DNA of 64,000 bases from Eubacteriales bacterium (GCA_045630385.1 JAZQTA010000057.1:14952-78951), one strand, 5' to 3'. Counted from the first letter of the stretch, positions 57,654 through 60,403 are shown. Translations and numbers: made by a program. Notes: generated from the letters alone by a model not told the origin.

Positions 57654-58235
57654 ATGAAGCTTACCAAAATTCTCGCAATCGTTCTTTGCGCGGCAGCGCT
57701 CGTTACGGGCTCGATCGCGGCAACCGTCGCTTACCTGACCATGAAGACCAACGCCGTGCAGAACACCTTCACCGCAGGTGATATCGAGATCACGCTTGAT
57801 CAGACAGCAACCCTGAATGAATTCAAGATGATGCCCGGTCAGACCTACACGGTAAATCCCTCGGTAACCGTAACAGCGGACAGCGAGGACTGCTGGCTTT
57901 TCGTCAAGATCGACGAGGTTCTTGAGGGCTCCGATGCGGGATTCCCCGACGGCACCACCTTTGCAACCTATCTGACCTATGCGCTCGCAGACGGTTGGAC
58001 GAAGCTTGACGGCGAAACCGGCGTTTATTACCGCTCCGTGACCGACGTAGAAAAAGGTACGGGCTTGTTCGTAATCAAAGATAACACCGTCACCGCAACC
58101 GCAACCTGTACCAAGGCACAATACGACCTGCTGAACGACGCAAAGCCGAACCTGAAGCTGACCGCATATGCCGTTCAGCGCGTTGGCTTCGATACCGCAG
58201 CAGCGGCTTGGGTCCAGGCCGAAGCCCTCGGTTAA
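57654..58235 (+). CDS. TasA/camelysin-like protein with SipW-cognate signal peptide (paralogue 1, subfamily A)
   Basis: The ORF is 193 aa. The N-terminus is MKLTKILAIVLCAAALVTGSIAATVAYLTMKTNAVQNTFTAGDIEITL and the C-terminus is LTAYAVQRVGFDTAAAAW. Confidence 0.8.
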   Translation: MKLTKILAIVLCAAALVTGSIAATVAYLTMKTNAVQNTFTAGDIEITLDQTATLNEFKMMPGQTYTVNPSVTVTADSEDCWLFVKIDEVLEGSDAGFPDGTTFATYLTYALADGWTKLDGETGVYYRSVTDVEKGTGLFVIKDNTVTATATCTKAQYDLLNDAKPNLKLTAYAVQRVGFDTAAAAWVQAEALG

Positions 58236-58266
58236 TCCACGAATTTAACTTACGGAGGAAAACAAA

Positions 58267-58854
58267 ATGAAAATGAAAAGAATTTTCATGCTGGCTCTCG
58301 CGGCTTGCCTGATCACGCTTACGGTTGCAGGCGCTTCTCTTGCGTACTTCACCGATACCGATGATAAGACGAACGTTTTTACTGCAGGCAACGTAGGTAT
58401 TACGCTCACGCAGGATGAAACCCCCACCAGACTCTACCCCGGTCAGACCTACAACAAGAAGGCAACCATCACGAACGATGGCACGGAAATCGCTTACGTT
58501 GGCGCGATTATCGACGTTACCGTAGCAGATGGACAGACGCTCTCCTTTGATGCTATTTCCAGCGTTCTCACCGGTCTTAACGCCAATGTTGTGAAATATG
58601 CGACAACCGACAACGATTACAAAATTTACGTAGTTGTTGAAGCCGAGCTGGCAGTAAACGGCACTGTCGACGTCTTCTCCGCGATGACAATTCCCGCAGC
58701 CTGGGGTAATGAAAATCTGAAGGCCTTCAATGATCTGAGCATCGTTGTTACCGCATACGCAACCCAGAAGGTTGGCTTTGCTGACGCCACCGAGGCGCTC
58801 ACCACCGCATTCGATACCGCTTGGGCAGGCTATCAGACCGCTACCAACGCGTAA
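58267..58854 (+). CDS. TasA/camelysin-like protein with SipW-cognate signal peptide (paralogue 2, subfamily A)
   Basis: The ORF is 195 aa. The N-terminus is MKMKRIFMLALAACLITLTVAGASLAYFTDTDDKTNVFTAGNVGITL and the C-terminus is VTAYATQKVGFADATEALTTAFDTAW. Confidence 0.85.
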   Translation: MKMKRIFMLALAACLITLTVAGASLAYFTDTDDKTNVFTAGNVGITLTQDETPTRLYPGQTYNKKATITNDGTEIAYVGAIIDVTVADGQTLSFDAISSVLTGLNANVVKYATTDNDYKIYVVVEAELAVNGTVDVFSAMTIPAAWGNENLKAFNDLSIVVTAYATQKVGFADATEALTTAFDTAWAGYQTATNA

Positions 58855-58916
58855 GCAGACGAACCGGAACAATTGATCCAAAGCTACATAAAAATATCTT
58901 CGGATCTCTCGAAGCA

Positions 58917-58945
58917 GGTGCGACCCGATTTTCTCGGGCCGCACC
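58917..58945 (+). other. GC-rich stem-loop between TasA-like genes 2 and 3
   Basis: GGTGCGACCCG ATTTTCT CGGGCCGCACC forms a stem of about 10 bp with one mismatch. It is followed by CCGCAAAAAAA, so there is no U-tract on the plus strand. Confidence 0.6.
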
Positions 58946-59131
58946 CCGCAAAAAAACAATTGGTGTGATGGCGGAAGCATAGTTACGTTAGGATGTCTAC
59001 GCTCCCCCACACCCATAAAATCCCCTATACGATTTCCCATAAAAATCACCAAGAATTATTATTTTCAGAGGCACTGATAAAGTAAGGAAAATAAAAATGC
59101 CAAACAAAAAAATACAGGCGAAGGAGGAAAA

Positions 59132-59839
59132 ATGATGGACGAAATTTTTCAGGCGACAAGCAACGATACAACAGACTTTATGACAGAATCCGCGCCCGAA
59201 GCAGAAGTCACAAGGCATAAGAGCGGCATTCGCTTTCCGTTTGCTCCCGTGATCTCCCTTCTTGCCATCATGGCCATCTTTGCCGCGCAGACCTTTGCTT
59301 ATTTTAGGGATTCCTCAACTGCGGAATCCATGACGATTACAGCGGGCTCGCTCGATATTTCTCTGATCGAGGTAAGCAGAAGCGGTAGCTTCCGGATGAA
59401 CACGGAGCCCATAAAAATGATGCCCGCCGGCGTTTATTCCTACGGCGGCGTTGGCGCAAAGAATTCGGGAACTCTTCCCGTTTACGTAAGAATCAAGGTT
59501 GAAAAAACCATTCTTCAATCCGAACATGAAATATCCCCCGGTTGGGAAAGCCTTATCGCCTGCAATTTCGGAGCGAGCAACGAGGCACTTCCCGAAGAGC
59601 AAAGAGATCTTTGGGCTTATAACGAGGGATATTACTACTATAAAGCAACTCTCGCCCCCGGCGAGCAGACCACCGCGCTTTTTGACAAGGTGCTCTTCTC
59701 CCCCGGCATGGGCAACGAGTTTGAAAACAGCTCGATTCGATTTGACGTAATCTGCCAATCGGTGCAGGCAAGCAACAATTCCCCCGATCCCATCACTGCT
59801 TGGGGCTGGCCTGCCGAGGCAAACGGATCGGTATCATAA
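59132..59839 (+). CDS. TasA/camelysin-like protein (paralogue 3, subfamily B) with about 30-aa N-terminal extension
   Basis: The ORF is 235 aa with a strong RBS, GAAGGAGG. The sequence ...RFPFAPVISLLAIMAIFAAQTFAYFRDSSTAESMTITAGSLDISL is followed by YYYYKATLAPGEQT and a C-terminal CQSVQASNNSPDPITAW. Confidence 0.8.
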   Translation: MMDEIFQATSNDTTDFMTESAPEAEVTRHKSGIRFPFAPVISLLAIMAIFAAQTFAYFRDSSTAESMTITAGSLDISLIEVSRSGSFRMNTEPIKMMPAGVYSYGGVGAKNSGTLPVYVRIKVEKTILQSEHEISPGWESLIACNFGASNEALPEEQRDLWAYNEGYYYYKATLAPGEQTTALFDKVLFSPGMGNEFENSSIRFDVICQSVQASNNSPDPITAWGWPAEANGSVS

Positions 59840-59848
59840 GGAGGGTGT

Positions 59849-60403
59849 ATGAAACGCATTTTGCATTTTTTCAAGCATATCAATAAGCGTGCACTCATCC
59901 TTCTGATCTCGGGCACACTGCTTCTTTCCGCGGCGGTGGGAACGACCGTTGCATGGATCGTTCAAAAAACCGACTCGCAGGGCAGCTCCTTCACGCCGCC
60001 CGACGCGCGAATTGCCCTGGATAGCCATGACGAGATCCTCAATAAGGGTAATATCCCTGTCTATGTGCGCGCGATGGCCGTGGTAAATTGGTATTCCACG
60101 GAAGAGGAGCACACCATTTTGTCCGAGGTTCCCAAGGAAGGCGTGGATTTCGAGATCGACACGGTTTCCTCCGGCTGGTTTCCCGGGAGTGATGGCTTCT
60201 ATTATTACGAAAAAACGCTTCTCCCCGGCGAGAGCGTTGTGCTCTTTACCGAGGCTCACCAAATCACGGAGAAGACGGGCTATGAGCTCCGTTTGCTTCT
60301 CCTTTCAGAGTCTATTCAGACCAATCCCATCGATGCAATACACGATGCATGGCCTGCTGTTGATGTTGATGCAAACGGCCGGCTTACTCCCGTAACGCCT
60401 TAA
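59849..60403 (+). CDS. Divergent TasA-like protein (paralogue 4, subfamily B)
   Basis: The ORF is 184 aa with RBS AAGGAGGG. The sequence ALILLISGTLLLSAAVGTTVAWIVQKTDSQGSSFTPPDARIAL is followed by FYYYEKTLLPGES and a C-terminal SESIQTNPIDAIHDAW. Confidence 0.7.
   Translation: MKRILHFFKHINKRALILLISGTLLLSAAVGTTVAWIVQKTDSQGSSFTPPDARIALDSHDEILNKGNIPVYVRAMAVVNWYSTEEEHTILSEVPKEGVDFEIDTVSSGWFPGSDGFYYYEKTLLPGESVVLFTEAHQITEKTGYELRLLLLSESIQTNPIDAIHDAWPAVDVDANGRLTPVTP

Follow-up and report, generated by a model that had tools for sequence, protein, structure and literature searches.

A conserved gene block encoding a SipW-type peptidase, four TasA/BsaA-superfamily paralogues and a giant secreted protein in uncultured gut Clostridia

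Donor-strand fibres of the TasA/BsaA type are the main protein scaffold of Bacillus and Clostridium perfringens biofilms, and relatives are found in archaea. To our knowledge, such fibres are almost unstudied in the uncultured Clostridia that dominate animal guts. Here we describe a gene block in a 64,000-nucleotide stretch of DNA from an Eubacteriales bacterium (GCA_045630385.1 JAZQTA010000057.1:14952-78951; "the window", with positions counted from its first letter). The host is an uncultured gut Clostridia bacterium, Oscillospiraceae/Eubacteriales-like. In the block, the gene for a SipW-type signal peptidase precedes four consecutive paralogue open reading frames (ORFs), P1 to P4, and the gene for a giant secreted protein. 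P1 and P2 form pair, or subfamily, A and P3 and P4 subfamily B. The region is probably the subunit block of a SipW-dependent, sortase-independent donor-strand fibre system of the TasA/BsaA type. Its genes are (lengths in amino acids, aa):

56835..57521, + strand: SipW-type signal peptidase I, 228 aa, TIGR02228 match
57654..58235, + strand: P1, 193 aa, subfamily A, from ORF translation; predicted cleavage between A26 and Y27, mature part ~167 aa
58267..58854, + strand: P2, 195 aa, subfamily A, passes PF12389 and TIGR04088; predicted cleavage between A26 and Y27
59132..59839, + strand: P3, 235 aa, subfamily B, passes TIGR04088; predicted cleavage between A56 and Y57
59849..60403, + strand: P4, 184 aa, subfamily B, more divergent than P1-P3; predicted cleavage between A35 and W36
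60415..64000, + strand: giant secreted protein, >1195 aa, GTG start, open at the window end; ordinary AXA-type signal peptide

The sipW-bsaA-bsaB-bsaC operon of C. perfringens has the same order, with the SipW gene first, then TasA-like paralogues and then a large secreted protein (PMC11580942). Its host is likewise a clostridial anaerobe, and in strain 13 the system is sortase-independent. The relatives of P3 and P4 find their best curated-model similarity in the BsaA model TIGR04090, and in one related locus (L011) the large protein has a vWA domain, like BsaC. The two systems differ in several respects: (i) there are four conserved paralogue types here versus two; (ii) no TIGR04090 score reaches 60 bits, and there is no conserved Lys for the N-E-K lock; (iii) the window giant exceeds 1195 aa and carries Flg_new and Cys/His repeats, versus a 70-kDa vWA protein; and (iv) a conserved hairpin lies here between paralogues 2 and 3.

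In the B. subtilis tapA-sipW-tasA operon (PDB 8AUR; monomer 5OF1), a SipW-type peptidase is also encoded within the operon. TasA has the same (S/T)-x-A site, then an aromatic-hydrophobic N-terminus and a strand of the form F-(A/T)-(S/A)-G-x-L-x-L, its last core strand likewise ends A-x-Q and is followed by Trp, and its mature part is a beta-sandwich. A low-abundance accessory subunit, there TapA, would be a further likeness. Unlike the proteins described here, which after predicted cleavage are about 150-180 aa long, mature TasA has 234 aa; profile similarity ends after ~75 residues, and Foldseek finds no significant similarity to 8AUR. A TapA homologue is missing here (no TIGR04087 match), and the accessory candidates are TasA-type paralogues rather than a distinct V-set Ig protein.

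Archaeal bundling pili (AbpA/AbpB, AbpX) are donor-strand fibres of small jelly-roll subunits, the type of assembly that we propose here. AbpX gives a marginal P2-family profile match over the donor strand and first strands, at only E 0.35. AbpB, a larger accessory protein, has been proposed to initiate assembly and carry adhesin domains (PMC9245690). The archaeal Abp operons have no dedicated signal peptidase, and the giant of the present block has no recognisable donor strand. The chaperone-usher pili (Pap, Fim) provide a functional analogy only. There, several paralogous Ig-like subunits per operon assemble by donor-strand exchange into a major rod with minor tip, adaptor and terminator subunits; specialised end subunits have altered strands or grooves, and an RNA hairpin within the operon, downstream of the gene for the major subunit, partly sets the stoichiometry. 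Their fold family is unrelated, the host here is Gram-positive with no chaperone or usher in the block, and the roles of P3 and P4 are proposed only.

TasA homologues are widespread in both Firmicutes and archaea (PMC9245690). According to the BsaA study, operons that combine several paralogues with genes for signal peptidases and SpaA-domain proteins are frequent; the same study suggests heteropolymers (PMC11580942). Because multi-paralogue TasA/BsaA operons have already been described, the present cluster is a further, well-conserved example of a known system type. Its specific architecture (four orthogroups, a hairpin boundary, a P4 that lacks one beta-hairpin, and a giant Cys/His-repeat protein without LPXTG) is worth recording; on present evidence it reveals no new mechanism. 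The cluster, which recurs in about 10 MAG (metagenome-assembled genome) lineages and combines four kinds of subunit with its own peptidase and a putative adhesin of giant size, offers a test case for heteropolymers with specialised end subunits, which have been raised in the literature (PMC11580942) and never shown. If the heteropolymer reading is untrue, the cluster is one more, unremarkable, case of a widespread operon type.

Conservation of the block in related loci

A degenerate-pattern scan with one genome per species yielded 16 related loci from Clostridia MAGs and one Lachnospiraceae isolate, and one more was added through look-up of a P2 homologue (loci are cited by L numbers). The MAGs are labelled Eubacteriales, Oscillospiraceae, Ruminococcus, Anaerovoracaceae, Lachnospiraceae or Faecousia, and several of their titles name sheep colon, roe-deer caecum or faeces. 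The order is the same in about 10 loci: the SipW gene, a P1-type gene (one or two copies), a P2-type gene, a P3-type gene, and then the P4-type gene and the giant gene in either order. Each window paralogue has its own orthologue, which points to four conserved roles and not to recent duplicates. The closest species representative, L005, has a P3 identity of 64%.

The peptidase, with P1-P4 directly downstream, has an orthologue at the head of the cluster in about 10 related loci; with the first cluster gene of L001 it shares 52% identity. It passes TIGR02228 (E 9e-20; 71.1 bits, cutoff 51.85) and PF10502 (25.3 bits versus 22.9), and it matches the Bacillus SipW model NF046067 with E 2.7e-18, below that model's cutoff. 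It is a peptidase of the archaeal/endoplasmic reticulum type, with an SGSMEP serine box, a THK histidine box and a C-terminal transmembrane (TM) segment. Compared with the TIGR02228 profile, it has an insertion of ~40 residues at about aa 95-150 and a Lys/Glu-rich tail after the TM segment, a layout also seen in the L001 orthologue.

The four paralogue ORFs lie on the + strand of the window, exactly at the coordinates given in the original prediction. All five complete products (peptidase and P1-P4) are identical to existing NCBI protein calls, so the gene models are independent of our reading.

A more distant cluster occurs in L018 and L019, from the cultured Lachnospiraceae isolate AM93-12TA and also a Clostridium sp. 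MAG. It encodes a protein of ~550 aa (L018 13264-14907; L019 13258-14916) whose N-terminus is TasA-like and whose C-terminus bears a sorting signal of LPKTG and a TM segment. In L019 a sortase-like ORF (17855-18685) lies near the LPKTG protein. The cluster is a cell-wall-anchored variant of the same system.

Paralogue families and their relation to TasA

All the motif strings quoted in the original prediction occur verbatim in the translations. The cleavage-site and strand segments are:

57729..57797, + strand: P1 cleavage site and N-terminal strand motif, AYLTMKTNAVQNTFTAGDIEITL, aa 26-48, read from the sequence
58342..58407, + strand: P2 cleavage site and donor-strand motif, AYFTDTDDKTNVFTAGNVGITL, aa 26-47, aligned to TasA
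59297..59365, + strand: P3 cleavage site and strand motif, AYFRDSSTAESMTITAGSLDISL, aa 56-78, read from the sequence
59951..60019, + strand: P4 cleavage site and modified strand motif, AWIVQKTDSQGSSFTPPDARIAL, aa 35-57, read from the sequence

The C-terminal Q...AW motif described as common to all four proteins appears as Q-x(9-17)-AW near each C-terminus, and TAYA(V/T)Q(R/K)VGF is present in both P1 and P2. The motif assigned to pair B, G(Y/F)YYY(K/E)(A/K)TL(A/L)PGE, is found in P3 and P4, but the YYY within it is not exclusive to that pair, since P1 carries an aligned GVYYR. The two paralogue-specific features are also real: P3 has an extra charged N-terminal extension of ~33 aa ahead of its TM segment, and in P4 the TAG core is lost, FTPP replacing FTAG.

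We assembled orthologue sets of 353 matches for P2, 58 for P3 and 24 for P4, and of 4047 50%-identity cluster representatives (E <= 1e-3) for P1. In the P1 family alignment, A26, F39, Q175 and W186 are invariant and L28, N37 and L48 nearly so. In the P2 family the invariant positions are A26, Y27, F28, T29, D30, F38, T39, G41, V43, I45, L47 and Q167, with W186 nearly invariant. F58 and the GYYYY string (G166-Y170) are invariant in the P3 family, where T54, A56, Y57, G72, Q212, A223 and W226 are nearly so; for P4 the invariant residues are A35, F48, Q157, A167 and W168, and P50 is nearly invariant. The motif residues are thus invariant or nearly invariant columns of each orthologue family, which argues that the motifs are not due to chance.

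The division into two subfamilies is borne out by both BLASTP and profile-profile comparison. BLASTP aligns P1 with P2 at 32% identity over 182 aa (E 8e-11) and P3 with P4 at E 3e-5. With hhalign, the family profiles match best within pairs (P1-P2, E 5.7e-26, probability 99.7%; P3-P4, E 3.1e-19, 99.2%). The cross-pair comparisons are significant as well: P1-P3, E 2.7e-13; P1-P4, E 3.3e-13 (97.9%); P2-P3, E 6e-11 (97.1%); and P2-P4, E 4.3e-7 (92.7%). These alignments are essentially full length, with probabilities of 92.7-99.7%, the P2-P3 alignment extending over 167 columns. Full-length matches across the pairs place all four proteins in one superfamily; at the level of sequence profiles, subfamily B is therefore not an unrelated group. 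By these profile comparisons, P1-P4 are homologous paralogues of one superfamily in two subfamilies.

Curated family models connect this superfamily to TasA (cutoffs: PF12389, 22.5 bits; TIGR04088, a 34-residue signal-peptide/strand model, 19 bits; TIGR04090, 60 bits; TIGR02228, 51.85 bits). P2 passes PF12389 (TasA/camelysin, Peptidase_M73) with 30.1 bits; P1 (17.4) and P3 (14.6) score below the cutoff, and P4 has no match. Among relatives, PF12389 is matched at E <= 0.01 by 49/49 P2-type, 18/52 P1-type, 26/48 P3-type and 0/22 P4-type proteins. TIGR04088 (cognate_SipW) is passed by P2 (37.3 bits) and P3 (21.9 bits), and P1 and P4 have no match at E <= 1; 21/52 relatives of P1 and none of P4 match it at E <= 0.01. 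TIGR04090 (BsaA, exp_by_SipW_IV) scores below its cutoff for P2 (31.4 bits), P3 (26.5 bits, E 4.6e-6) and P4 (13.3 bits); 16/22 relatives of P4 match it at E <= 0.01, also sub-threshold, with a best E of 4.5e-11. P1, P3 and P4 are linked to the PF12389 family through their profile-profile homology to P2. Membership of P1-P4 in the SipW-cognate TasA/BsaA/camelysin superfamily is thus supported by these profile matches.

The P2 family aligns with B. subtilis TasA (hhalign, 92.5%, E 4.8e-7) over TasA residues 3-78 and the N-terminal 76 residues of P2; the TasA sequence used was checked against PDB 8aur_A. In this alignment, A26 and Y27 of P2 fall on A27 and A28 of TasA, and FTAGNVGITL falls on FASGTLDLSA, the TasA counterpart of the whole P2 motif being A27-A28-F29-N30-D31...F39-A-S-G-T-L-D-L-S. 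In TasA, the mature N-terminus is formed between A27 and A28, and residues 28-38 are the donor strand (8aur_A; PMC9674648). Carried over by alignment, the TasA register gives the cleavage sites predicted above for P1, P3 and P4 as well as P2, each with S/T at -3 and A at -1. The motif spanning the cleavage site and strand, directly after the signal peptide, is conserved in all four families, and its role as a donor strand is predicted. The description "TasA-like" thus holds in the sense of the broad superfamily (PF12389 and TIGR04088 passes, N-terminal motif), and does not hold in the sense of a close relationship to TasA itself, given the ~75 residues of similarity and the missing Foldseek match.

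AlphaFold2 (AF2) models of P2 and P3, of good quality (mean predicted local distance difference test, pLDDT, 80.9 and 78.2), both have all-beta cores, that of P2 being a beta-sandwich. In P2, residues 21-38, which span the cleavage site and strand, are the sole stretch of >=3 residues with pLDDT <50, as expected of a donor strand modelled in a monomer without its partner. It is the sequence profiles, together with the signal/strand motif and the genomic context, that support assignment to the TasA family, rather than a fold match.

Proposed fibre assembly, possible subunit roles and alternatives

We propose that the four pre-proteins would be exported by Sec and cut by the cluster's SipW-type peptidase after (S/T)-x-A, that is, after A26 in P1 and P2, A56 in P3 and A35 in P4. 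Each mature protein would then begin with an aromatic-hydrophobic dipeptide and a strand segment of ~20 residues ending FT(A/P)(G/P)x(I/V)xI(T/S)L. By donor-strand exchange, as in TasA/BsaA, this N-terminal segment would insert into the beta-sandwich of the next subunit and so build a non-covalent fibre. P1 and P2 would be the bulk subunits, and P3 and P4 would be made at a lower level together with the giant and act as specialised end or adaptor subunits.

P4 has two conserved peculiarities. Pro-Pro replaces Ala-Gly within its strand motif, and a deletion of ~25 residues, seen as a 25-column gap in hhalign against the P3 family, removes the hairpin that follows the donor strand in P1-P3. Through the P2-TasA and P3-TasA alignments, the deletion maps to TasA residues ~48-68, a segment that includes the strand self-complementing the groove in monomeric TasA (PMC9674648). 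Without the self-complementing segment, P4 may be an end subunit with an open groove, and of the four it would be the likeliest cap or adaptor that only accepts a strand. P3 has the conserved features PVYVR, GYYYY, MGNEF and AWGWP. Its charged extension is present in 48/48 close relatives, with variable sequence, and is missing in shorter P3-type proteins of more distant clusters. Since the cleavage motif of P3 is intact, the extension is probably a long cytoplasmic n-region and not a permanent anchor, and P3 could be the initiator or a membrane-proximal subunit.

The original prediction made pair A the major and pair B the minor subunits. We consider this assignment tentative, with the chances slightly against it; the lines in its favour are indirect. 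The first is spacing. Within the block, only P2 and P3 are separated by a long intergenic stretch, which measures 277 bp in the window; in most related loci it spans about 60-250 bp, and in two it exceeds 1 kb, whereas the other gaps are 20-35 bp. This stretch contains a hairpin:

58917..58945, + strand: GC-rich hairpin GGTGCGACCCG-ATTTTCT-CGGGCCGCACC, 63 nt 3' of the P2 stop, found by folding; no U tract

In nine related loci (L001, L005, L006, L007, L008, L010, L012, L013 and L014), the P2 orthologue is also followed by a hairpin of similar or greater strength (-20 to -34 kcal/mol). The post-P2 hairpin is kept in position, not in sequence, and in 6/8 loci tested only 0-1/40 random 200-nt windows fold as well. 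No canonical intrinsic terminator was found after P2, since the hairpin has no U tract. Most likely the hairpin would act as an attenuator or stabilise the 3' end of the sipW-P1-P2 transcript, and it marks the boundary between a sipW-P1-P2 block and a P3-P4-giant block.

The second line is codon bias, which follows the order P1 > P2 > P3 ≈ P4: by C-ending plus ACC codons, P1 ranks among the top tenth of the window's genes, P2 is intermediate and P3 and P4 are near the bottom decile. The third is that P3 and P4 always adjoin the giant gene in related loci. In B. subtilis, likewise, TapA is far less abundant than TasA (PMC10151520). No homology of P3 or P4 to TapA was found. An NCBIfam scan at E <= 1 found no TIGR04087 (TapA/YqxM) match in any of the five proteins, so the suggested "TapA-like" nature of pair B can stand as a functional analogy only.

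The giant orthologues (L001, L005-L008 and L010-L016) are 1477-1983 aa long and adjoin P3/P4 in 12 loci. They carry ordinary signal peptides, and all end in a DUF7601/SpaA-like domain with the motif GxYTVT...WxWRY, followed in most by a conserved short tail, W-L-(S/T)-D. None of the 12 has an LPXTG motif, and the giants have no C-terminal TM anchor; a regular-expression search of every frame of the window likewise found no LPXTG-plus-TM signal and no TLxTC sortase signature. In the window giant, one Flg_new repeat was found (E 9e-8), together with two Cys/His repeat blocks at 62020-62280 (aa 536-621) and 62563-62825 (aa 717-803). The latter repeats are 12-16 aa long, follow the pattern C-x3-4-(E)-H-x-H-x3-4-C and together contain 11 HxH motifs; they look like a metal-binding module and have no Pfam match. 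Such blocks are present in the giants of L005, L006, L010, L012, L013 and L014 and absent in L007, L008, L011, L015 and L016. In L011 (10514-13411) a 966-aa protein that has a vWA domain and ends in DUF7601 takes the place of the giant; it is the closest parallel to C. perfringens BsaC.

To the eye, the tail of the giants (W-L-(S/T)-D..., in some loci W-L-x7-N-x-F-T/S) had resembled the Y-F-T-D...N-x-F-T-A-G strand of the pilins. We rejected the tail as a donor-strand mimic: a hidden Markov model (HMM) of 137 donor-strand segments had no match at any giant C-terminus.

Several results weigh against a TasA/BsaA-type fibre with pair A as its bulk and the giant attached. P1 and P4 pass no curated threshold themselves in the Pfam and NCBIfam scans. 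The similarity of the P2 family to TasA ends after ~75 residues, and hhalign comparisons of the P1, P3 and P4 families with TasA are insignificant, which for P3 and P4 counts on this side. Profile searches of PDB sequences with the four family alignments gave marginal matches only, to AbpX (E 0.35), the Sulfolobus thread filament (E 0.064) and DsbD (E 0.3). The P2 and P3 models have no Foldseek match in the PDB at E <= 1e-3; the TasA fibre 8aur_A is at rank 25 for P2 (E 0.022, TM score 0.25) and is absent among the 50 matches listed for P3. The hairpin of the window is only moderately unusual, since 5/40 random 200-nt windows fold as well, and a terminator scan did not call it a terminator, consistent with the missing U tract. 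In genes as short as ~190 codons, differences in codon bias carry little weight. Searched anywhere in the 12 giants, the donor-strand HMM gives a best score of ~1 bit, and hence no recognisable donor strand. Finally, C. perfringens BsaB forms dimers only and does not enter BsaA oligomers, and secreted BsaC is monomeric (PMC11580942).

The behaviour of BsaB and BsaC means that heteropolymers and attachment of the large protein have no precedent, and a model of independent proteins is a serious rival. In that model there is no co-assembly: one subunit, most likely P1 or P2, would form a homopolymeric matrix fibre, and the other paralogues and the giant would be independent secreted matrix or adhesion proteins that share the SipW route. 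We regard it as unlikely, while noting that the only studied multi-paralogue operon behaves in this way (PMC11580942). The ordinary signal peptide of the giant and its lack of a donor-strand-like segment fit it too, as does the far greater number of P1-type proteins in metagenomes (4047 clusters, versus 58 matches for P3 and 24 for P4, in searches that differ in sensitivity). On the other hand, the fixed order and strict co-occurrence of the four orthogroups with the giant in about 10 divergent loci argue for a joint function, the cleavage-site and strand motif is retained in all four families, and the conserved deletion of the hairpin segment in P4 is hard to square with a stand-alone self-complemented monomer.

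The fibre reading can also be taken further, to a five-component, sortase-independent heteropolymeric pilus. Here P1 and P2 would form the shaft, P4 (as an always-open acceptor) and P3 (with its long n-region) would be end or adaptor subunits that couple the ~1700-aa Cys/His-repeat adhesin, and the hairpin would set the ratios. In this full form the proposal is doubtful; if true, it would be a Gram-positive counterpart of the chaperone-usher architecture of rod, tip fibrillum and adhesin.

A covalently locked or wall-anchored pilus, with a BsaA-type N-E-K isopeptide or sortase-dependent LPXTG anchoring, is quite improbable. In BsaA the intermolecular isopeptide triad is N35, E56 and K74 (PMC11580942), and the relatives of P3 and P4 do have sub-threshold similarity to TIGR04090. 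In none of the four family alignments, however, is any Lys column invariant or nearly so, which makes a conserved N-E-K triad unlikely, a judgement made indirectly from family columns. As to anchoring, the SpaA/DUF7601-like domain at the end of the giants is typical of sortase pilins, and the distant L018/L019 cluster combines an LPKTG-anchored TasA-like protein with a nearby sortase-like ORF in L019; against this, the window has neither LPXTG nor TLxTC, and the 12 giant orthologues lack LPXTG.

That P1-P4 are secreted enzymes or peptide precursors, after the Pfam name of PF12389 ("camelysin metallo-endopeptidase") and the JGI name [quoted passage not shown] on P0117 and P0120, is highly improbable, since no family shows the invariant His, Glu or Asp positions expected at the active site of a metalloprotease, the camelysin protease assignment is regarded as a likely misidentification (PMC11580942), and the mature parts are 150-180-aa beta-sandwich domains confidently modelled by AF2.

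Other features of the block and an archaeal relative

A 340-bp non-coding region parts the cluster from unrelated metabolic genes upstream and contains the best promoter-like site upstream of the cluster:

56723..56751, + strand: sigma-70-like promoter candidate TTGACA-17-TATTAT, a consensus match only (11/12)

No Rfam family was found in 56300-60600. Two long antisense ORFs on the - strand lie over P1/P2, at 57417-58121 (234 aa) and 58090-59052 (320 aa). They are unsupported as genes and probably arise from the codon composition of the + strand genes; we treat them as spurious because the homologues, family matches and NCBI gene calls belong to the + strand products.

Outside the Clostridia, L020 (a Methanobacteriota archaeon MAG) encodes three tandem weak relatives of the P3 family at 467-4400, adjoining SipW-like peptidase ORFs. 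One of them carries AYFSDTE...TAGTLDL, and together they illustrate the reach of the superfamily into archaea.

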